Shown: in pieces, positions 1 to 29,587 of the stretch
How positions within the stretch are numbered: the stretch's first letter is position 1
Layout: every line of letters starts with the position of its first letter
Assembly: GCA_013151235.1 (NCBI GenBank)
Contig: JAADIO010000062.1
Coordinates: forward strand, 1 to 37,178
Direction: 5' to 3'
From: Deltaproteobacteria bacterium
GTDB taxonomy: Bacteria > CG2-30-53-67
DNA: 37,178 bases
Position numbers and translations under genes: made by a program
The notes under the pieces: generated by a model
Told to the model about the DNA's origin: nothing
What the model saw: only the letters and a program-made list of their open reading frames with translations
Databases searched by the model: none

Positions 1-1459
1 CACCAAGGTATTTAATAAATAACTCAAGTTGCTTTTTTTCTTTTTTATCTTGAAGTCTTTTCTTCAGATTACATGCAATCCACTCTGCAACAGATAAGGC
101 AATAATGGGACGACCTATAACATTTGTTTGGTATAGCGCAAAAAGTTCTTTGCTAACGGGTTTAGATGTGGCTTCATTGATTTGTTTTATTAACTTTTGA
201 AAATCGGCCTTCTTATTATGCTTGAATTCATCTTTAAGAAGTTGAAGAATTGTTTTTTTATCTTTTTTGCCAGCCCTCTTATTTCTCCCGGTAGCATTTG
301 CTTTTTTCTTTTCTTTGTCTTTGGCTGTTACAATTAATGATTCTGTTAATGCTTGAAATTCAGTCTCTTCCTTCTGCCGTATAGATTCCACTTTCCCCTG
401 GTTTTCGATAGAGAGCAATCTCTTTGCTTTACTAATCAAATCAATAGGAATAGCCTTTGACTTTGGAATTGGATAAAAAGGCATATAATCCTTTTTATAT
501 TCAATACAATCTAAAATGCTCGATTTGTTGTCTTTTCTTAAGACTCCCTTTATTTCATCTGAAAATTCGGTCACTGCCCTCCAAAGAAACTTTAATGCCA
601 TATTCGGAATTTCTATAACCTCACAATCGAAATTTGTTCCACTATTTATCACCATCCAAAGATTTAAAGCAACATGGTCAGGCAATTCCAAAATGTCCAA
701 ATCGTTCTTTAACTGATTTAGCTCATTCAATAAAACAAGTACTATACTTTTCTTCCCCTTCCCTGTCCCAATTGATGCAATTGAAACACCTTTATTCTGC
801 TCGGTCACCATAGAAATCTTGTCAATTGTATCATGATAGATACTCCTTACATGAGGAACAAGTAGGTTTGGGTCTGTATATTGAAAACATACAATCTTTC
901 CTTTCAACATCACAACTGCCAGAGAAGTCATTTGAACACAAAGAAGAGCAAAAGCCGACAGTTGAGGTTCTCGACTTGCGGCAGGTAACGCCCCAGCATC
1001 ATTAGTAATTGAACCAATAAGTGGAAAAGCATTTCTGCCAATATCCAGTCGCTGATTCTTCTTTAATATTCCTTCTTTTCTAAATCTCTCTGTAAGTAAT
1101 GCGAGCGATTTATTTGCTGAAGGGAACACCCCTGTGCATTCACATCGATTTGATGAATCTACCTTTACTGAAAGAGATTGTTCCAAGTCATTTACCAAAG
1201 TCTTCAGAATTTCTTGGTACTTTATCCTTTGTATTGGCCTATCCTTTGCTTTAACTTGACGATTCAAAAAGGCATTTGCAAATAAGCAGATATATGAATT
1301 TAGATGTTCATTCGCATCCATCAACCATTTCCCATCTCCAATTACTTCTCTAAAATCTTGTATTGTCATTTCTTCGGGAGAGTGTTTGTTGGCACGCACT
1401 ACAGCTACAGCCAACCCGGTATCCACCCACGGATTCCCCGTCCAATCAAACAATGGCAT
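1..1459 (-). CDS. cas8b1: Type I-B CRISPR-associated large subunit Cas8b1/Cst1 (3' end outside window)
   Basis: Absent from the ORF track because it runs off the window. Translated by hand from ATG 1459 (RBS GGAGG): MPLFDWTGNPWVDTGLAV...CECTG...GRNAFPLIGSITNDAGALPAASR...; the same frame is still open at the window edge. TGNPWVDxG and RxxFPLxGS are Cst1-type motifs, and the gene lies directly downstream of cas6. Confidence 0.85.
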   Translation of the reverse strand, partial: MPLFDWTGNPWVDTGLAVAVVRANKHSPEEMTIQDFREVIGDGKWLMDANEHLNSYICLFANAFLNRQVKAKDRPIQRIKYQEILKTLVNDLEQSLSVKVDSSNRCECTGVFPSANKSLALLTERFRKEGILKKNQRLDIGRNAFPLIGSITNDAGALPAASREPQLSAFALLCVQMTSLAVVMLKGKIVCFQYTDPNLLVPHVRSIYHDTIDKISMVTEQNKGVSIASIGTGKGKKSIVLVLLNELNQLKNDLDILELPDHVALNLWMVINSGTNFDCEVIEIPNMALKFLWRAVTEFSDEIKGVLRKDNKSSILDCIEYKKDYMPFYPIPKSKAIPIDLISKAKRLLSIENQGKVESIRQKEETEFQALTESLIVTAKDKEKKKANATGRNKRAGKKDKKTILQLLKDEFKHNKKADFQKLIKQINEATSKPVSKELFALYQTNVIGRPIIALSVAEWIACNLKKRLQDKKEKKQLELFIKYLG

Positions 1460-1507
1460 GATGACCTCCGTATTAAATAACTGTTCAAACCGTTTAAACA
1501 AACGATT

Positions 1508-2308
1508 TTATATCGCTATCATCCCCAGCCCGTTACTGTTCTTGCTCCCCAAACCGCATTCGTAGCCGACCCGGATCAGTTCGGGGTCTGTTTCCATTTC
1601 AAAGGGTGCGTTGAAGCATTTCAGCTTGATCGGGTTGCCGTTTTTCGCCTTGAAGGTAATGAGGCTCGTGATTTTGCCATTTTTGCGCTCGATGTAGTTT
1701 TTGTCAAATTCAAAGCGGAAGCGGTCCGGGTGGAGGGTCTTTTTGTGAATGATCTCGTATTTCCGGACCAGGTTGTTCCGGATATTCTCCACGAACTTTT
1801 CATTCTCTTTGAAGTAGTGCAGGGTCCAGGATTTCTTGTTCCCGGTTTCCGGGTCGTCGATGAAGGTGTCCATAAAGATCGGGGAGAGGCATTTGAAACG
1901 CATTATCTTGGTAAATTCCGGTTCCGGAAGGGTCTCGACACCGATGATGTTAAAGCGGATCATCTCCGAGCTTGTCATCAGGTCGAGCCTGTTGTTCTCA
2001 AAGATTCCCCGGACGATGTTTTCCAGGGACCGGTCCACGGGGGTGGAGATATACCAGTTCACCCTGCCGGTCCCGGTCTGCAACCCTTTCTTTGTGACGC
2101 GGTAAGGGCCGTCGATCTTCAATTCGGAGAAGGTAAAGAGCTTGAAATGTTTCCCCTGGTGGATGAATCCTTCATTATGAAGGAAAAGCGAGTAGGCCGC
2201 ATCCGAACTTCGGATCAGGTGGTAGAGCGCGCTCATCAGGTGATAGTTATAATTGAAGGGAAGAAGAAAACGGTCTCTTTGTTCCCGAAGGCTGATTTTC
2301 AATCTCAT
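1508..2308 (-). CDS. cas6: CRISPR-associated endoribonuclease Cas6
   Basis: LPFNYNY, FLHNEG, FKLFTFS and C-terminal G-rich loop GYECGLGSKNSNGLG. Confidence 0.96.
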   Translation of the reverse strand: MRLKISLREQRDRFLLPFNYNYHLMSALYHLIRSSDAAYSLFLHNEGFIHQGKHFKLFTFSELKIDGPYRVTKKGLQTGTGRVNWYISTPVDRSLENIVRGIFENNRLDLMTSSEMIRFNIIGVETLPEPEFTKIMRFKCLSPIFMDTFIDDPETGNKKSWTLHYFKENEKFVENIRNNLVRKYEIIHKKTLHPDRFRFEFDKNYIERKNGKITSLITFKAKNGNPIKLKCFNAPFEMETDPELIRVGYECGLGSKNSNGLGMIAI

Positions 2309-2361
2309 GGCTTTCCCTTATCGTCCGGTTGCTCAAAGCGTTTGAACTGTTTGAACAGATT

Positions 2362-2760
2362 TTATCCCTCCATCCCCACCAGCACCCCGACCTTCTCCCA
2401 GGGTGCCGCATCCCGGTCGATCCAGCCGATCTCGCCTTTCAGTGTATAGCCTTCGTCCATCAGACCGGCGAGGACGGAGTTGTCCGCCCGGGGGATGAAG
2501 CCGAGTTTGTGCTCTTTCCGGTAGACGGCGATGGCCCGGTCATCGTGGTGATTGGCCTTCTCCCGGACGAGCCGGAGGGGCTGCCCCTCCCGGAGCATGG
2601 GCAGGAGCTTTTCTCCATCGTAGTACTGGAATCCTGCGATCAGTGTCGCCAGAAGCAGGGGCGGTTTTTTCCGAGGCGGCGCCGTCCGGCCGGGCTTCGG
2701 CAGGAGAAAGGGAAGGATCGGCAGGGCGAGGATTGCTTTGAGAACTTCTCTTCGTTTCAT
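2362..2760 (-). CDS. HIRAN domain protein with N-terminal twin-arginine-like/hydrophobic leader
   Basis: IAGFQYY...LRLVREKANHHDDRAIAV...KLGFIPRADN is the HIRAN pattern; N-terminus MKRREVLKAILALPILPFLL; RBS AGGAGG. Confidence 0.88.
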   Translation of the reverse strand: MKRREVLKAILALPILPFLLPKPGRTAPPRKKPPLLLATLIAGFQYYDGEKLLPMLREGQPLRLVREKANHHDDRAIAVYRKEHKLGFIPRADNSVLAGLMDEGYTLKGEIGWIDRDAAPWEKVGVLVGMEG

Positions 2761-2796
2761 GGGTTCTCCTCCTGAAAAGGTTACTCTTTTCAGGGG

Positions 2797-2870
2797 ATCC
2801 TACCACCGACAGTGGACAGATCATGTCCACTGTTTGCAAAAATATTCAATCCCTTTGACCGATCCTGTCC
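2797..2870 (-). promoter_or_regulatory. Putative WYL-regulator binding sites and activator-dependent promoter of HIRAN-cas6-cas8
   Basis: Perfect inverted repeat ACAGTGGACA-gatca-TGTCCACTGT (2809-2833); degenerate second copy GACcgatcctGTCC (2857-2870); minus strand reads TGTCCA-N10-TAGGAT with TG extension and no canonical -35. Confidence 0.6.
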
Positions 2871-2874
2871 TCCC

Positions 2875-3876
2875 TCACCCTGTCCCCCTGTTTTTCCGTC
2901 CCTTGCCCGGCAGATAAAGCGCCTGCATTTTCTCAAGATCCTCCCGGATCTCTTCGATGAGCTTCTGCGGCTCCAGTACCTCAGCCTGCGGCCCGAAGCT
3001 TAAGATCCATCGCTTGATCTCCAGGGTTCCACCGACGGTGAGTTCAAGGACGATCGAACCGTCCCGGTTCCTTACAACTTCACGGCTTGGATGCCACTGG
3101 CGCTCTTCAATATACCGGGCGATCTCCGGGACGAACCGGATCCGCACCCGGACCGGCGTCTCGATCATGACTGAGAAGGCATGGCGCGTGTATTCCCCGA
3201 AGTCGAAGTTTTCGGGAATGAGGAAGTTTTCGTCCGTATGATTGATCAGGGAGATCCGGTCGACGTCGAACATCCGGATCTCACGGCGGAGATGACACAG
3301 GCCGATGAGGTAGACGGCGCCGTCGCGGTACCAGAGCCGGTAGGGATCGACCTTGCGGATTTTCGGTCTTGCGTCCTTCAGCCCCCGGTAGGCGATCTCG
3401 ACCCGCTCCTGTTTTGCCGCGGCGGCAAAGAGGCTGCGCAGAAAGTCACGGCGGCGGGAGTAGTCCTTGGCGGTGCTGAGACTGAGGGAGAAGATCCGTT
3501 TCATCCCCTCGAAGGAGGCCATCCTTTCGTCATCGAAGGTGGAGCGGATCTTGTGATGGATCGATTCGAGGGTGGGCCGGAGAAATGGCTCGCCGAAAGA
3601 TTTGAGGAGACGGGTCCCTTCTTTCAGTGCATAGAGTTCGGTGGGGAGGAAGGTGACGGGAGGGACTTCCTTGTACCCGTCGATGAGAGACCAGTATTTC
3701 CGCCGCCCCGCCTGTCGGTCGACAATGGGGAAAATCGTCGAGAGCTTGTCGAGATCCCTCCGGATGGTCCTGGCGTTGACGCCGTATTCCCGGGACAGTT
3801 CGGAAACGGTGGTTCTCCGTTTGCGGCAGAGGAGGTTGATGATTCCCCATTGCCGCTCCAACTGATCCACAGCCAT
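2875..3876 (-). CDS. HTH-WYL-WCX transcriptional regulator (PafB/PafC/DriD-like)
   Basis: N-terminal wHTH (TVSELSREYGVNARTIRRDL), WYL core (RKVDPYRLWYRDGAVYLIG...RMFDVDRI), WCX (WILSFGPQAEVLEP); ATG 3876 follows AAGGAGGT. Confidence 0.93.
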   Translation of the reverse strand: MAVDQLERQWGIINLLCRKRRTTVSELSREYGVNARTIRRDLDKLSTIFPIVDRQAGRRKYWSLIDGYKEVPPVTFLPTELYALKEGTRLLKSFGEPFLRPTLESIHHKIRSTFDDERMASFEGMKRIFSLSLSTAKDYSRRRDFLRSLFAAAAKQERVEIAYRGLKDARPKIRKVDPYRLWYRDGAVYLIGLCHLRREIRMFDVDRISLINHTDENFLIPENFDFGEYTRHAFSVMIETPVRVRIRFVPEIARYIEERQWHPSREVVRNRDGSIVLELTVGGTLEIKRWILSFGPQAEVLEPQKLIEEIREDLEKMQALYLPGKGRKNRGTG

Positions 3877-3910
3877 TTTCACCTCCTTCTTGTCCGGGCC
3901 CGGATTTATT

Positions 3911-3940
3911 AAGATAATAAGAAAGAAGCAGTCATGTCAA
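3911..3940 (-). promoter_or_regulatory. sigma70-like promoter of the WYL gene
   Basis: TTGACA-N18-TATCTT on the minus strand. Confidence 0.45.
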
Positions 3941-3979: not shown

Positions 3980-4008
3980 TTGACAGTTCAGGCTTATTAC
4001 GATAAATT
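3980..4008 (+). promoter_or_regulatory. sigma70-like promoter, divergent from the WYL gene
   Basis: TTGACA-N17-TAAATT. Confidence 0.55.
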
Positions 4009-4048
4009 AAGAATATCTTCACTTAAATTCCAGACAGGAGAGACGGTT

Positions 4049-4486
4049 ATGGTTATGGATCTGCATCTGCCGGTGGTCGTCCATTTCAAGGAAGGGGAGA
4101 TCCGGAAGGGATACACCCGGAACTTCGCCTTTTTCCGGGAGCATTTCGACCTGACCGAAGTCGATATTCCGACCAGGGAGGAAAAGGGAACGGTACGGAT
4201 CCCGTTAGAGGATGTGAAGGCCGTCTTCTACGTAAAGGATTTTGAGGGCCAACCCCGCTACAATCCGGACCCGCAGGCTGAACGGTCCGGTTTCGGAGAC
4301 CGCGTAGAGGTCATCTTCCACGACAATGAAACCCTGGTCGGTTACACCCCGAACTACAAGGAAGAAACAAACGGATTCATACTCTATCCCGCAGACGAAA
4401 AGAGCAACAACGAGATCGTTGCCGTTGTCCGCTCGGCCACCCGTGCCGTCAAACCGGAAGAGAAATATTCATTCTTCCGCCCCTGA
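4049..4486 (+). CDS. Conserved hypothetical protein (DUF6982-like)
   Basis: VVVHFKEG..KGYT..F, KAVFYVKDFEG, VEVIFHDNETLVG, GFILYPAD..SNN; start moved to ATG 4049 after AGGAG. Confidence 0.7.
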   Translation: MVMDLHLPVVVHFKEGEIRKGYTRNFAFFREHFDLTEVDIPTREEKGTVRIPLEDVKAVFYVKDFEGQPRYNPDPQAERSGFGDRVEVIFHDNETLVGYTPNYKEETNGFILYPADEKSNNEIVAVVRSATRAVKPEEKYSFFRP

Positions 4487-5510: not shown

Positions 5511-6251
5511 ATGGCCGAGCTTACCTTTCAGACGGAGGCGGAGAAACGTTTCACCCCTTTTCTGGACGAACTTCTCGGCACCTCCCGGGAGAAGATCCAC
5601 TCCGTCCAGGTCACGGGGAGCGCCCTGACCGAAGACTACGATCCCAAACGCTCGGATATCAATTCCGTCGTCGTACTGAAAGAGATGGACCTGAAGTTTC
5701 TCAGGGTACTGGCCCCGCTCGGGAAGAAATACGGCAAAAAGGGGGTGGCGGCCCCCCTCATCATGACGCAGGACTATATCCGGGCCTCACTCGACGTCTT
5801 TCCCGTGGAATTTCTGAACATCCACTGGGTTCACAGGACACTCTTCGGCGATAACCCCTTCGCCGAGATCGAGGTCAAGCCTTCCGATCTCAGGCAGCAG
5901 TGCGAACGGGAACTGAAGGTCCGGCTCATCGGGATGCGGCAGAACTACCTCTCCGCCTCCGGCGACCTGAAGATCCTCGCGGAAGGTTTCGTCAAGGCAT
6001 TCTCAGGCTACATTCCTCTCTTCCGGGGGATCCTGTTCCTTCTCGGGCAGGGGATCCCTCCCGCCGGGATGGCCGCCGTGCTGGCAGGGATGGAAGACAA
6101 AACAGGGCAGTCCATGGAGACCTTCCGGGAGATCCTCGCCGCACGGCAGGGGAAGAAGAAATTCTCCATGGACGAACTCCATCTCCTCTTCGAGAACTGT
6201 TACACCACCGTCGAAACGCTGGGAAGGATGATCGATGAGATCCCGGTCTGA
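5511..6251 (+). CDS. Nucleotidyltransferase-fold (Pol beta superfamily) protein
   Basis: SVQVTGSA...SDINSVVVL, DVFPVEFL, LRQQCEREL; found next to TPM/LemA genes. Confidence 0.75.
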   Translation: MAELTFQTEAEKRFTPFLDELLGTSREKIHSVQVTGSALTEDYDPKRSDINSVVVLKEMDLKFLRVLAPLGKKYGKKGVAAPLIMTQDYIRASLDVFPVEFLNIHWVHRTLFGDNPFAEIEVKPSDLRQQCERELKVRLIGMRQNYLSASGDLKILAEGFVKAFSGYIPLFRGILFLLGQGIPPAGMAAVLAGMEDKTGQSMETFREILAARQGKKKFSMDELHLLFENCYTTVETLGRMIDEIPV

Positions 6252-6999
6252 GGGAATATCCCGCTTTTTCGTGATCCTGCTCCTCCTCTTCCTGCTGCCG
6301 CCCCGGACAGCCGCGGCCGTCTCCATCCCGGCGCAGCCGCCGGATTACGTGGTCGATCTGGCCCATGTCATCAACGACCGGCAGGAGAAAGAGCTTGACC
6401 GTTACCTTAGAGAACTGGAAGAAAAGACCACGGCACAGTTCATCGTACTGACCGTATCCGACCTGGGCGGTGACAGCATCGAGGACTTCTCCATCACGCT
6501 GGCCCACGATCGCTGGAAACTCGGGCAGAAAGGGAAGGACAACGGCCTGCTCCTCGTTGTGGCCGTCCGGAACCGGAAGTACCGGATCGAGGTCGGTTAC
6601 GGGCTTGAGGGACTCCTGCCCGACAGCCGGGTCGGAACGATCGGACGGCGCTACCTCGTACCGGCCTTCCGCCGGGGGGATTATTCCGGTGGAATCACGA
6701 ATGCGGCCCTGGCCCTGGCCGGGATCATAGCTTCAAACGCAGGGGTCACAATCACCGGCATGCCGGAACCGCCCCGGCCCCGGCCGGTCCGCAGGCGGCC
6801 GACCGTCTTCGGCTCGATCGGTTCCATCATTTTCTTCATCTTCATGGCGATCCTCTTCATCCGGAATCCCCGCCTCTTCTTCCTCCTCTTCCTCATGTCG
6901 GGAATGGGGGGAGGGCGGCGCGGCCCCTGGGACGGCGGCGGATTCGGAGGAGGCGGGGGCGGCGGATTCGGAGGAGGCGGCGCGTCGGGAAGCTGGTGA
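6235..6999 (+). CDS. TPM domain membrane protein (YgcG-like)
   Basis: Signal peptide, VVDLAHVI, WKLGQKGKDNGLLL, RIEVGYGLEG, TM helix, Gly-rich tail ending GGGGASGSW. Confidence 0.93.
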   Translation: MRSRSEGISRFFVILLLLFLLPPRTAAAVSIPAQPPDYVVDLAHVINDRQEKELDRYLRELEEKTTAQFIVLTVSDLGGDSIEDFSITLAHDRWKLGQKGKDNGLLLVVAVRNRKYRIEVGYGLEGLLPDSRVGTIGRRYLVPAFRRGDYSGGITNAALALAGIIASNAGVTITGMPEPPRPRPVRRRPTVFGSIGSIIFFIFMAILFIRNPRLFFLLFLMSGMGGGRRGPWDGGGFGGGGGGGFGGGGASGSW

Positions 7000-24217: not shown

Positions 24218-24330
<113 letters not shown>

Positions 24331-24428
24331 ACTTCAACAGCTTCGTAAAAAGTCCGTCTGCTGCGTTATACTTCGTCTTTTAGTCACTCATACAAACCGA
24401 CCAGATAAACTGAATTAAAAGCAAATAA

Positions 24429-27403
<2,975 letters not shown>

Positions 27404-27575
27404 CTATCTGCTTTCAAGTCAACTTACCTAGTTCTCGGTTTCATTGAGTGACTTTCTTCTGTCAAAGAGCAATCCGGACGTACGGTCCGGCGTCGGTTCT
27501 CTATACTTGAGAACTCGGAATTGGAAATGATGCCTAAATCATAATTTCCAATTCCGAACCCTCAATTGTCCAGAT

Positions 27576-27651
27576 TGGTGGAGGATAGCGGGATCGAACC
27601 GCTGACCTCCTGCGTGCAAGGCAGGCGCTCTCCCAGCTGAGCTAATCCCCC
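27576..27651 (-). tRNA. tRNA-Ala(TGC)
   Basis: GGGGGATTAGCTCAGCTGGGAGAGCGCCTGCCTTGCACGCAGG...TCCACCA. Confidence 0.97.
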
Positions 27652-27709
27652 ATTCTTAGAGGACAAATGACGGAGCTTCCAAATCATCCCGTCATCTGTC
27701 CTCTGAAAA

Positions 27710-27786
27710 TGGTGGGCCTAGGTAGATTTGAACTACCGACCTCGCGCTTATCAGGCGCGCGCTCTAACCAACTGAGCTATAGGCCC
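27710..27786 (-). tRNA. tRNA-Ile(GAT)
   Basis: GGGCCTATAGCTCAGTTGGTTAGAGCGCGCGCCTGATAAGCGCG...GGCCCACCA. Confidence 0.97.
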
Positions 27787-27936
27787 AGAGTCATCTATAC
27801 GGCCTATCGACCCGGTCGGTAGTTTTTACCGCCCTTCCCGGCTTTCAACCGGGACGCTCCAACCAACTGAGCTGTAGGCCCAGAGTCATCTATACGGCCT
27901 ATCGACCCGGTCGGCAACTTCCACCGCCCTTCCCGG
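27760..27936. repeat. 82-bp direct repeat with 95-bp period in the 16S-23S ITS
   Basis: 27760-27841 and 27855-27936 are nearly identical. Confidence 0.9.
27800..27881 (-). pseudogene. tRNA-Ile-derived pseudo-tRNA / tRNA-like structure in the ITS
   Basis: GGGCCTACAGCTCAGTTGGTTGGAGCG, then hairpin TCCCGG-TTGAAAG-CCGGGA, eroded T arm and TAGGCCG; no TTCRA loop, no CCA. Confidence 0.65.
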
Positions 27937-28024
27937 GATTATGCTGTTCACTAAATCATGTATATATTAGCCTGGCGGATATCAACCTAGGATGGTTCCG
28001 GAATCCCGAAGGATCCTCGAAGAA

Positions 28025-29587
<1,563 letters not shown>

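Follow-up and report, generated by a model that had tools for sequence, protein, structure and literature searches.

A small gene encoding a HIRAN-domain protein, often preceded by a gene for a WYL-domain transcription regulator, recurrently heads CRISPR-Cas operons. The occurrence of this WYL-HIRAN head in distant bacteria suggests that HIRAN is an undescribed CRISPR-linked gene. It was found in a window of 37,178 nucleotides, the initial 37 kb of contig C31 in a metagenome-assembled genome of 73 contigs and 2.6 Mb, where it is followed by type I-B genes. With slightly better than even confidence, we favor the explanation that a horizontally acquired, low-GC I-B cassette docked behind a resident WYL-HIRAN head that recurs before many CRISPR subtypes, with the HIRAN protein on the envelope side. 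Regulation of CRISPR by WYL proteins has been described before; no paper connecting HIRAN with CRISPR was found in the literature.

The four genes of the original prediction, WYL, HIRAN, cas6, and the Cst1/Cas8b large subunit, were all confirmed in that order and in one shared orientation on the minus strand (Table 1). The WYL and HIRAN genes are 114 bp apart. The gaps of about 50 bp first noted after HIRAN and after cas6 were also recovered: 53 bp after HIRAN, and about 48 bp after cas6 if the large subunit starts at Met15 (position 1459), where homologue alignments begin, or 6 bp if it starts at the listed TTG. In a consensus scan, the HIRAN-cas6 gap contained no terminator-like and no sigma-70-like site. 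Given this and the short gap, it is plausible, as originally proposed, that HIRAN is the first gene of the cas transcript.

Table 1. Positions of the features at the WYL-HIRAN-cas locus within the window
Feature	Position	Strand	Basis or remark
wHTH-WYL-WCX transcription regulator, CapW/BrxR type	2875..3876	-	Pfam, PADLOC, orthologues
Sigma-70-like promoter match (TTGACA, 18 nt, TATCTT), 5' of WYL gene	3911..3940	-	Consensus scan
Perfect 10-5-10 palindrome, ACAGTGGACA-tgatc-TGTCCACTGT	2809..2833	.	Candidate WYL operator
Hairpin with 9-bp stem, CCTGAAAAG-n6-CTTTTCAGG	2771..2794	-	3' arm enters HIRAN AGGAGG ribosome-binding site
HIRAN residues 1-33, predicted Tat signal or signal-anchor	2662..2760	-	Sequence motifs
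HIRAN domain, residues 34-132, and stop codon	2362..2661	-	PF08797 (4e-15), AF2, Foldseek
HIRAN-cas6 spacer	2309..2361	-	Also left breakpoint of cas cassette swap
cas6, Cas6b-type crRNA endoribonuclease	1508..2308	-	TIGR01877 (4e-34), PADLOC Cas6b (8e-61)
Type I-B large subunit (Cas8b/Cst1 type), N-terminal 500 aa only	2..1501	-	PADLOC, homologues

The cas6 product also matched the Pfam families Cas6_I-A and Cas_Cas6_C. The large subunit, truncated by the contig start, had no Pfam or NCBIfam match and was recognized by the PADLOC profiles for Cas8b (7e-24) and "CAS-I-B effector_LS". Its homologues are 64-70% identical, with PF09706/Cst1 in remoter ones, and are about 660 aa long, so about 160 aa are missing here. 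In those homologues, cas7b-cas5b-cas3 follow. When the remaining cas genes and an array were sought, cas1, Cas3_HD, DevR/Cas7, and cas4 were not found anywhere in the 73-contig assembly, the rest of the I-B operon having been lost at the contig end; an array of 9 repeats was found at the start of contig C70 in the same bin.

A scan of the genome collection confirmed 234 HIRAN relatives, and the loci of the best 80 were taken. Two were dropped (HIRAN ORF not callable), leaving 78. Same-strand cas genes lay downstream of HIRAN at 35 of these 78 loci, or 32 of the 63 whose downstream sequence spans 3 kb or more; cas genes lay upstream at 1 of the 66 whose upstream sequence is that long. A same-strand WYL gene preceded HIRAN within 600 bp at 28 of the 78 loci and within 2.5 kb at 35. 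Behind HIRAN, assignment by Pfam and local HMMs gave type I-C (14 loci), I-G (5), I-E (4), I-F (2), I-B (2), V-A (1, with Cas12a, at L015), and type I without a subtype call (7). The original prediction had treated type I-B as the partner; I-C is the commonest one in this set. The cas-linked loci belong to Nitrospirota, Thermodesulfobacteriota, Pseudomonadota, Verrucomicrobiota, and Bacteroidota. A second sample of 401 genomes, spread evenly over one class, yielded 42 HIRAN matches, of which 8 lay within about 7 kb of Cas3 on the same contig, 7 of the 8 upstream and on the same strand, and a WYL match accompanied all six of the eight that were checked with local HMMs. The WYL-HIRAN-cas order is therefore recurrent and oriented in many lineages, and WYL-HIRAN pairs in relatives are linked to cas genes. 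The HIRAN-cas adjacency is not a local accident and is more than chance. Most CRISPR loci are not headed by HIRAN, which held this position in only 2 of 33 genomes with Cas8c. Other defence genes were present within four ORFs at 7 of 31 non-cas loci, so part of the linkage signal may be a defence-island effect.

The cassette behind HIRAN has been exchanged. HIRAN orthologues in two close relatives of the window genome, G001 (92% identity) and G005 (82%), precede cas3-cas5c-cas8c, that is, type I-C, and their DNA identity with the window extends from about 95 bp 5' of the HIRAN start codon to the HIRAN stop codon, where it ends. The GC content of HIRAN and WYL (53-65%) is host-like, that of cas6 (47-53%) is intermediate, and that of cas8b is 32-41%, compared with 55% for the contig. 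The I-B genes of the window look like a recent replacement of an I-C cassette. In a quick HIRAN tree, the topology tracked host taxonomy, the cas subtypes were scattered, and single clades mixed them: the window I-B with I-C, L025 and L037 (I-C) with L042 (I-E), and V-A with I-F in Zetaproteobacteria. In Sulfuricella, HIRAN occupies one chromosomal site with or without a cas cassette; within the backbone DinG-HIRAN-TsaB-UDG, it is followed by I-C, by I-E, or by nothing.

Such exchange could also mean that HIRAN has no role in CRISPR and marks a docking point, cassettes being retained by the WYL promoter or a recombination anchor. The host-following tree, the Sulfuricella site, host GC in HIRAN and WYL beside foreign GC in cas, and the breakpoint exactly at the HIRAN stop codon all fit this reading, as do the 43 of 78 loci (best 80 of 234) without cas genes and two loci with WYL and cas in which HIRAN is absent, G004 and L103; the latter (WYL > cas6 > cas6 > cas8) is the one informative relative of the I-B cassette. 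We nevertheless consider a passive neighbor unlikely, because orientation and adjacency are the same in five phyla (35 downstream versus 1 upstream), and because each of the four genomes checked carries 1-2 HIRAN genes and the cas-adjacent copy is among them. In addition, 14 cas-linked loci of the 78-locus set have no WYL gene within 2.5 kb, so WYL alone is insufficient to explain the linkage, and the nearby genes of other defence systems are mostly on the opposite strand (5 of 7 loci).

The regulator itself resembles characterized repressors. Its ORF is listed from a GTG (2875..3882); the ATG at 3876, with AGGAGG ahead of it, is the likelier start. The protein contains HTH_DeoR/HTH_11, WYL (8e-19), and WCX (8e-23) domains and matched the PADLOC profile "WYL, CAS associated_signaling" at 1e-43; orthologues in G001, G004, and G005 are 64-69% identical. 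The promoter-like site 5' of its gene agrees at 10 of 12 positions and is a consensus match only. Excerpts of PMC11662680 report the CapW/BrxR family beside CBASS, BREX, CRISPR-Cas, and R-M systems and describe members that bind a palindrome and let go upon ssDNA binding, as shown for CapW. The PADLOC match places the window regulator in this CapW/BrxR type, in support of the original interpretation.

A candidate operator lies about 50-75 bp 5' of the HIRAN start codon. The core of this palindrome is the sole exact copy in the 2.6-Mb assembly, and allowing two mismatches adds one site, on contig C37. It is near-identical in G001 and G005, with one arm base different in each, and is kept in G001 despite a different upstream gene. 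The arms of the hairpin nearer to HIRAN are unchanged in both genomes. Four Zetaproteobacteria loci carry a GGACA-N5-TGTCC or GGTCA-N5-TGACC core at -61 to -69; among 26 other WYL-HIRAN spacers, only 6 contain a palindrome whose strength exceeds that of 95% of shuffles.

The HIRAN protein (2362..2760, 132 aa) is probably exported. Residues 1-33 comprise a twin-arginine motif (RREVLK), a hydrophobic stretch of 12 residues, and a Pro/Lys/Arg-rich linker. They are conserved as protein sequence in 8 close homologues, correspond by homology to evident Tat or Sec signals in relatives, and stand apart from the domain in the AF2 model (pLDDT 51-58). Of 76 scored family members in the loci set, 41 have an RR-type motif with a hydrophobic stretch and 26 more a hydrophobic N-terminus alone; the corresponding numbers for the best 149 cluster representatives are 81 and 28. 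The same rule matched 25 of 2200 ORFs in the window genome. The Tat-signal HMM TIGR01409 gave no match to the window protein and one match, below the cut-off, among 21 family members, so the export call rests on motifs rather than on a trained predictor. With Tat- or Sec-type signals in the window protein and in most relatives, the domain is predicted to lie outside the cytoplasm, which counts against the roles first proposed for it.

Those roles place HIRAN in the cytoplasm, where it would bind ssDNA 3' ends together with the Cas machinery, capturing prespacers or handling Cas3 products, or would compete with WYL for ssDNA. A gene position first in the operon, conserved 3'-end pocket motifs, DNA-targeting by every partner system, and a HIRAN gene adjoining cas4-cas1 inside the L074/L141 locus would suit them, and in G169 (L138) a HIRAN without a signal sequence fills the same slot (WYL > HIRAN > cas3). 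The window protein also lacks an Ala-x-Ala site in its N-terminus and has five basic residues directly after the hydrophobic stretch; a reversed topology that holds the domain inside is therefore possible. However, among the 35 cas-linked members, 33 begin with a Tat- or Sec-like sequence, many of them with Ala-x-Ala sites, and the 5 signal-less members among the 78 loci (best 80 of 234) form their own clade, with none cas-linked. One protein would also have to serve six unrelated effector architectures, Cas12a included. We therefore rate a cytoplasmic function as somewhat less likely even than a passive neighbor. The original interpretation stands in part: the recurrent WYL-HIRAN-cas order is supported, and the cytoplasmic roles and the specificity for I-B are not.

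It is very improbable that the low-GC cas6-cas8b end of C31 was misjoined to host sequence during assembly. A drop in GC from about 60% to about 35% in the last 1.5 kb before the contig end and a bin that lacks the remaining operon would fit such a misjoin. However, an unrelated contig from Bacteroidales (L079) has the same gene order (HIRAN > cas6 > large subunit > cas7 > cas5 > cas3), the intermediate cas6 leaves no sharp GC step, and the array on C70 has low-GC repeats.

The identities of the genes, their conserved order and strand, the exchange of subtypes, the conserved palindrome, and the signal-like N-termini are direct results of the analysis, whereas the function of the HIRAN protein is inferred. 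In the docked-cassette explanation, the resident two-gene module encodes a CapW/BrxR-type regulator and then a 132-aa HIRAN-fold protein with a twin-arginine-type signal or anchor; this head fronts DNA-targeting CRISPR-Cas systems of many subtypes (I-B, I-C, I-E, I-F, I-G, V-A) and stays while the cassette is exchanged. By analogy with the family, a WYL dimer would sit on the 10-5-10 palindrome 5' of HIRAN and be released when the WYL domain binds ssDNA from DNA damage or phage replication. The spacing suggests a single transcript running through HIRAN-cas6-cas8b and onward. HIRAN would then cross the inner membrane or be anchored on its outer face, as family sequences indicate. More speculatively, its conserved pocket, the counterpart of the one that accommodates a free DNA 3' end in HLTF, may bind DNA ends entering or in the periplasm. 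If so, HIRAN would accompany CRISPR immunity on the envelope side and would not assist Cascade, Cas3, or Cas1-Cas2.

Like CapW/BrxR and Sll7009, a WYL protein that represses a type I-D CRISPR locus, the window regulator has the three-domain architecture, matches the CRISPR-associated WYL profile, and is encoded directly upstream of, and co-oriented with, a defence operon. Its candidate operator is a palindrome that lies in the target promoter region, has a spacer of 5 bp, and agrees in its 10-5-10 geometry with the 11-5-11 inverted repeat bound by BrxR, as given in the excerpt of PMC9122601. Unlike in those systems, the first gene under predicted WYL control encodes a HIRAN protein; the word HIRAN does not occur in PMC9122601, PMC11662680, or PMC4012209.

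The HIRAN domain was modeled by AF2 with pLDDT >95 over residues 34-131. A HIRAN-like protein from structural genomics without a described function, lp_0118 from Lactobacillus plantarum (PDB 3K2Y), was the top match in sequence (2e-9; 8e-17 with a profile) and in structure (Foldseek 5e-8; TM 0.85 by target). It is likewise small and standalone, but its roughly 109-aa chain starts with the domain, so no signal sequence is visible. The HIRAN domains of human HLTF and yeast Rad5 share the fold (4XZG, 4S0N, 4XZF; Foldseek E about 1e-4, TM about 0.6), with a profile match at 2e-6. Six residues (G43, F44, G49, N70, D73, and A76) do not vary across 39 sequences, and the conserved motifs GF-Y-Y and N-x-aromatic-D align with GLRYY and NPYD of HLTF; G-x-x-Y-Y and N-P-Y-D, the motifs lining the 3'-end pocket, are retained. 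In HLTF, according to the excerpt of PMC4666394, the bound dinucleotide is stacked upon by Y72 and Y93. At the second aromatic position of the pocket, the window protein has His, and its relatives have Tyr, Phe, or His. In contrast to HLTF and Rad5, the window protein stands alone without an SNF2 or RING part, and its signal-like N-terminus predicts a place outside the cytoplasm. PDC-M03B, which is gene B of a candidate defence system in PADLOC, matched the window protein through its HIRAN part at 5e-16. Only profile positions 135-226 of 250 were covered, the N-terminal half being missing in the window protein, and the window context is CRISPR-Cas; the match indicates that HIRAN domains are already present in candidate defence genes.

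Four genes on the minus strand, in the order WYL regulator, HIRAN, cas6 and cas8b, lie at the start of the window, which confirms the co-oriented arrangement described in the original prediction. They are separated by 114 bp (WYL-HIRAN), 53 bp (HIRAN-cas6), and 6 bp (cas6-cas8b), and the last gap grows to about 48 bp if cas8b starts at Met15, the point where its homologues begin to align. The HIRAN-cas6 gap was scanned for terminator-like and promoter-like sites, and none was found. In the 500-aa frame of the large subunit, nothing was recognized by Pfam or NCBIfam. Besides the Cas8b profile, the PADLOC profile "CAS-I-B effector_LS" was also matched (3e-8). Full-length homologues of this frame are about 660 aa long and 64 to 70% identical to it, the PF09706/Cst1 family is present in remoter homologues, and cas7b, cas5b, cas3, and cas4 come after cas8b in relatives. 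Because of the PADLOC call, these homologues, and the downstream genes in relatives, the earlier labels "cas8b1" and "type I-B" are right. The location of Cas6 next to the large subunit is likewise a type I-B trait.

Features of the WYL-HIRAN-cas head in the window
Feature	Position	Strand	Basis or remark
WYL regulator (HTH + WYL + WCX)	2875-3876	minus	Pfam; PADLOC CRISPR-associated WYL profile, 1e-43
Perfect 10-5-10 palindrome, candidate WYL operator	2809-2833		between WYL and HIRAN; read in sequence
Second conserved hairpin	2771-2794		runs into HIRAN ribosome-binding site
HIRAN protein, 132 aa	2362-2760	minus	PF08797, 4e-15
cas6	1508-2308	minus	TIGR01877, 4e-34; PADLOC Cas6b, 8e-61
Cas8b-family large subunit, 500-aa frame running off the contig	2-1501	minus	PADLOC Cas8b, 7e-24

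The window forms the first 37,178 bases of contig C31 in an assembly of 2.62 Mb and 73 contigs. A search of this assembly for cas1, Cas3_HD, DevR, and cas4 found none of them. Contig C70 of the same assembly opens with a CRISPR array (locus L002, 8-636) of eight 36-nt repeats and one degenerate last repeat. The repeats end in GAAAC and are low in GC, like the I-B genes, and the array is oriented compatibly with its following the cas operon. It probably belongs to the truncated operon of the window, through a join of C70 to the window's contig that we infer. The low-GC end of another contig, C17, was considered as the continuation of the operon and ruled out; it carries an unrelated ORF and a methyltransferase. 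With the lone Cas8b fragment as the query, a metagenome scan gave no matches; with a Cas8b alignment, it gave five loci, among which only L103 extends upstream of cas6. Elsewhere in the window, 1.9 copies of a 95-bp unit (27760-27936) overlap the tRNA-Ile that lies between the 16S and 23S genes of the rRNA operon (24218-29586), apparently through partial duplication of the tRNA plus spacer.

The regulator has the domain order HTH_DeoR (9e-7), WYL (8e-19), and WCX (8e-23) in Pfam, which is the wHTH-WYL-WCX architecture. The core of the palindrome behind it is the sole exact copy in the assembly, and one looser site, at two mismatches, was found on contig C37. In the compared genomes G001 (same genus) and G005 (another genus of the same family), the palindrome is nearly identical to that of the window, with one arm base differing in each. 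Four Zetaproteobacteria loci have a core of the same form equally far upstream (-61 to -69). When 26 other WYL-HIRAN spacers were examined for inverted repeats, 95% of shuffles were beaten in only 6; therefore, outside Nitrospirota and Zetaproteobacteria an operator motif of general occurrence is not established.

Three further observations concern the WYL gene and its surroundings. A 12-bp perfect palindrome, TCCGGGCCCGGA (3893-3904), stands between a promoter-like site and the ribosome-binding site of this gene and may be a WYL autoregulatory site. A DUF6982 gene (3980-4486) is divergent from WYL, a pairing that is absent from G005 and from another compared genome, G004. Contig C38 of G004 (locus L097, 3405-11694) carries an island in which a second WYL paralogue (47% identity) comes first, accompanied by a Schlafen/AlbA_2 protein, HsdM fragments, and a DarT-Macro (DarTG-like) pair.

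ALTERNATIVES

The GC content is 32 to 41% in cas8b, 47 to 53% in cas6, and 53 to 65% in HIRAN and WYL, with a contig mean of 55%. The cas genes are newcomers, and WYL and HIRAN are residents. The HIRAN orthologues of G001 and G005 are 92% and 82% identical to the window protein, respectively, and both are next to a type I-C system (cas3, cas5c, and cas8c/Csd1). The DNA of the window, G001, and G005 is nearly identical over a stretch that opens about 95 bp before the HIRAN start and closes at the HIRAN stop codon. Directly past the stop codon, G001 and G005 continue jointly into cas3, and the window departs into cas6. Therefore, one cassette replaced another behind an unchanged HIRAN. This exchange amounts to a clean natural experiment on replacement, with the same regulator, operator, and HIRAN and with differing cas types. 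In G005, a distance of 2.2 kb holding two opposite-strand ORFs separates HIRAN from the WYL orthologue (66% identity) upstream, and the orthologue of G001 is away from HIRAN, at a contig edge. In G004, where no HIRAN was found with the query used, the WYL orthologue lies 4.7 kb upstream of a cas5-cas8-cas7-cas3-cas4 operon.

For a wider view, one genome per species was scanned with an alignment of close HIRAN homologues as the query. In total, 234 relatives were confirmed, of which the best 80 were returned; 2 without a callable ORF were dropped, leaving 78 loci. Neighbours were clustered, Pfam was run on the representative of each cluster plus 145 of the 169 same-strand neighbours still lacking a label, and local HMMs derived from the clusters were run over all frames of the 78 loci. 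Within these best 80 of 234 relatives, same-strand cas genes were found downstream of HIRAN at 35 of 78 loci, a count that, like those related to it, includes rows sharing kinship and so does not represent independent events. Where at least 3 kb of downstream sequence was present, the count was 32 of 63. Cas genes upstream of HIRAN were found at 1 of the 66 loci with at least 3 kb on that side. The first cas gene begins within 1.5 kb of HIRAN in 27 loci of this best-80 set.

The cas-linked loci among the best 80 of 234 span five phyla and six subtypes: I-C (14 loci), I-G (5 loci; GSU0053/GSU0054), I-E (4 loci; cas3-cse1-cse2-cas7e), I-F (2 loci; cas1-cas2/3-csy1-3 and a Cas5fv variant), I-B (2 loci, of which L079 shares the window gene order), and V-A (1 locus, L015). 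Seven more are type I with the subtype unassigned. A CRISPR array is present in 12 cas-linked loci of this set and also in L055, where no cas gene was found. WYL is located upstream on the same strand within 600 bp in 28 of the 78 loci and within 2.5 kb in 35; WYL and cas occur together in 21 loci, and each of the two occurs without the other in 14 (again among the best 80 of 234). The adjacency of HIRAN and cas is therefore conserved across distant taxa and non-random. In a quick IQ-TREE maximum-likelihood tree of the HIRAN domain, in which many forks are poorly resolved, clades track host taxonomy, cas subtypes are scattered, and small well-supported clades mix subtypes. Cultured carriers of the arrangement include Geothermobacter hydrogeniphilus HR-1 (L081) and Nitrosovibrio sp. 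Nv17 (L069).

A second sample consisted of 401 genomes drawn evenly from the class containing locus L043. Here, 35 of 400 genomes contained HIRAN, with 42 matches in all. Seven of the 42 shared contig and strand with a strong Cas3 match and lay upstream of it; only Cas3 matches of about 1e-11 or better were counted, as the probe (PF22590) also matches other helicases weakly. One further HIRAN match was 7 kb downstream of cas3, which brought the cas-linked matches to 8 of 42; the matches in genomes G081 and G159 were not cas-linked. Among the 14 best small HIRAN genes of this sample, 7 were cas-linked and 2 were at contig ends. Ten HIRAN places were fetched, including six of the eight cas-linked ones; all six of these had a WYL match, and five had a signal-like N-terminus. 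Cas8c was present in 33 genomes of the sample, and HIRAN was upstream in only 2 of them. Thus, HIRAN heads a small minority of CRISPR loci, about 1 in 20 in that class.

Several loci showed features of their own. On a Ghiorsea contig (L015, 2138-10075), WYL and HIRAN are followed by Cas12a (1284 aa), cas4, cas1, and a 29-repeat array; thus, the same head module precedes a class 2 type V-A system. A pair of HIRAN genes precedes the type I-C operon of L041, where one opposite-strand ORF separates them, and that of L045, where they are in tandem. The array of L055 (11979-12128) has four type I-E-like repeats 1.7 kb downstream of HIRAN and may be an orphan. Proteins with SEC-C motifs (YchJ-like, or HEAT plus SEC-C) occur one or two genes from HIRAN or WYL in different lineages (L012, L025, L042, L043, L048, and L065). 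DUF6880 proteins, one with a SWIM zinc finger, lie between WYL, HIRAN, and cas3 in two type I-G-like loci (L048, 10535-11482; L067, 7842-9620). A TPM-domain gene within about 5 kb of HIRAN was seen in three distant lineages (window 5511-6999, Sulfuricella loci, and L079), which may be chance. It is accompanied by LemA in relatives and comes after an unassigned 246-aa ORF in the window. Two apparent features were rejected: several ORFs between HIRAN and cas3 in GC-rich loci resemble non-coding shadows, and at the loci with the opposite-strand ORF cluster "unk369", recurring upstream of HIRAN, the HMM search found a forward-strand WYL gene.

HIRAN could be a passive resident beside a docking site for cas cassettes. 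A tree that tracks hosts would fit such a resident, as would Sulfuricella, where HIRAN is retained whether I-C, I-E, or nothing follows, and the other defence genes near HIRAN in 7 of 31 non-cas loci (among the best 80 of 234), mostly on the opposite strand; the recurrence of the same orientation in five phyla, and the placing of one HIRAN gene beside cas in four checked genomes having just one or two, argue for more than residence.

The window protein starts with Met-Lys-Arg-Arg-Glu-Val-Leu-Lys, 12 hydrophobic residues, and a Pro/Lys/Arg-rich linker, and the domain follows from about residue 34. The Tat consensus is an S/T-R-R-x-F-L-K-like motif and then a hydrophobic stretch; RREVLK with the 12 hydrophobic residues is thus Tat-like. 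This N-terminus is kept at the protein level in eight close homologues and is modelled by AF2 with low confidence, separate from the HIRAN domain. The equivalent stretch is a textbook twin-arginine signal ending in Ala-x-Ala in remoter relatives and a textbook Sec signal in the Sulfuricella group. By a simple regex rule, 41 of 76 members among the best 80 of 234 combined an RR motif with a hydrophobic stretch, and another 26 had a hydrophobic N-terminus alone; the background for the RR rule was 25 of 2200 ORFs of the window genome. Five members of that set without such an N-terminus form a separate clade, and none of them is cas-linked. A library of 1.84 billion proteins yielded 3,858 HIRAN representatives at E <= 1e-10, and the best 149 included 81 of the RR type and 28 with only a hydrophobic N-terminus. 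The curated Tat model TIGR01409, a short model of 29 positions for which HMMER filters drop weak matches, gave no match to the window protein and one match among 21 family members (12.9 bits, against a cut-off of 16.7 bits). Judged by these N-termini, the HIRAN family looks exported.

A small-x-small signal-peptidase site is present in many relatives (e.g., L014, L017, and the Sulfuricella group) and absent from the window protein, which continues PKPGRTAPPRKK after the hydrophobic stretch; five basic residues come after this stretch. Without a peptidase site, membrane anchoring is possible, and the window protein may stay anchored in the membrane, in a topology that is not certain. The scarcity of Tat-model matches, the missing peptidase site together with the basic residues, and a cas-linked HIRAN of the second sample without any signal (L138) speak against export.

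These results support in part the interpretation of the original prediction, which placed two ssDNA sensors ahead of the cas genes and considered HIRAN as a possible accessory. The WYL part is of a known kind, and the WYL-HIRAN-cas order recurs. A cytoplasmic role of HIRAN, as the proposed accessory functions would imply, fits poorly with the RR-type or hydrophobic N-terminus of 33 of the 35 cas-linked members (best 80 of 234) and keeps some life through L138, a cas-linked HIRAN of the second sample without any signal, and through one locus where HIRAN adjoins cas4-cas1.

The AF2 model of the window HIRAN has a mean pLDDT of 86, with values above 95 over residues 34-131, and Foldseek matched it to 3K2Y and to the HLTF HIRAN domain, including DNA-bound entries. 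Six residues (G43, F44, G49, N70, D73, and A76) do not vary across 39 HIRAN sequences, and Y46 hardly does; the window protein has His at position 72, where the family has Tyr, Phe, or His. Mapped by motif, without superposition, the conserved residues correspond to the G-L-R-Y-Y and N-P-Y-D stretches of HLTF, whose Y72 and Y93 stack on the bound dinucleotide (PMC4666394). Therefore, the 3'-end pocket seems to be retained in the window HIRAN family. In the protein atlas, the window protein is named "HIRAN domain-containing protein" and nothing more.

An envelope companion is a further reading, which we hold to be doubtful. The exported HIRAN family would be an unrecognized, subtype-independent partner of DNA-targeting CRISPR-Cas that grips the 3' ends of DNA during injection or uptake, or of DNA remaining in the periplasm. 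One ssDNA-sensing WYL repressor would induce it along with cas, and the WYL-HIRAN pair would act as a stable docking head for the exchange of whole cas cassettes (I-B, I-C, I-E, I-F, I-G, and V-A). The role of HIRAN in particular is one that we infer. If the link is functional, it would add an envelope-side step to CRISPR immunity and a rare ancillary gene common to class 1 and class 2 systems.

To our knowledge, the one established activity of the HIRAN domain is to bind DNA 3' ends at replication forks, and its predicted extracytoplasmic place is unexpected. In the searchable literature, no description was found of CRISPR operons that begin with the gene of a small HIRAN protein, and no paper was found joining HIRAN with Cas3 as whole words. 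Papers pairing HIRAN with WYL or with CRISPR-Cas exist, and by title and abstract none is on this link. The word HIRAN is absent from the main texts of two surveys of CRISPR-linked genes (bioRxiv 10.1101/270033; PMC6967390) and of a CARF/WYL paper. As far as the literature was searched, both the exported-HIRAN head of CRISPR operons and the swapping of cassettes behind it are new.

WYL control of defence operons is already known. Sensing of ssDNA by WYL-domain proteins is described for DriD and PafBC (PMC10853764, PMC11804915), CapW binds a palindrome from which ssDNA releases it, and the CapW/BrxR family adjoins CRISPR-Cas among other systems (PMC11662680). Gene B of the PADLOC candidate defence system PDC-M03 (about 250 aa) is matched by the window protein only over its HIRAN part, at profile positions 135-226 of 250, and not over its full length. 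BrxR binds an inverted repeat whose 11-bp arms are separated by 5 bp (PMC9122601), and the candidate WYL operator of the window, with its 10-5-10 form, resembles it in geometry.
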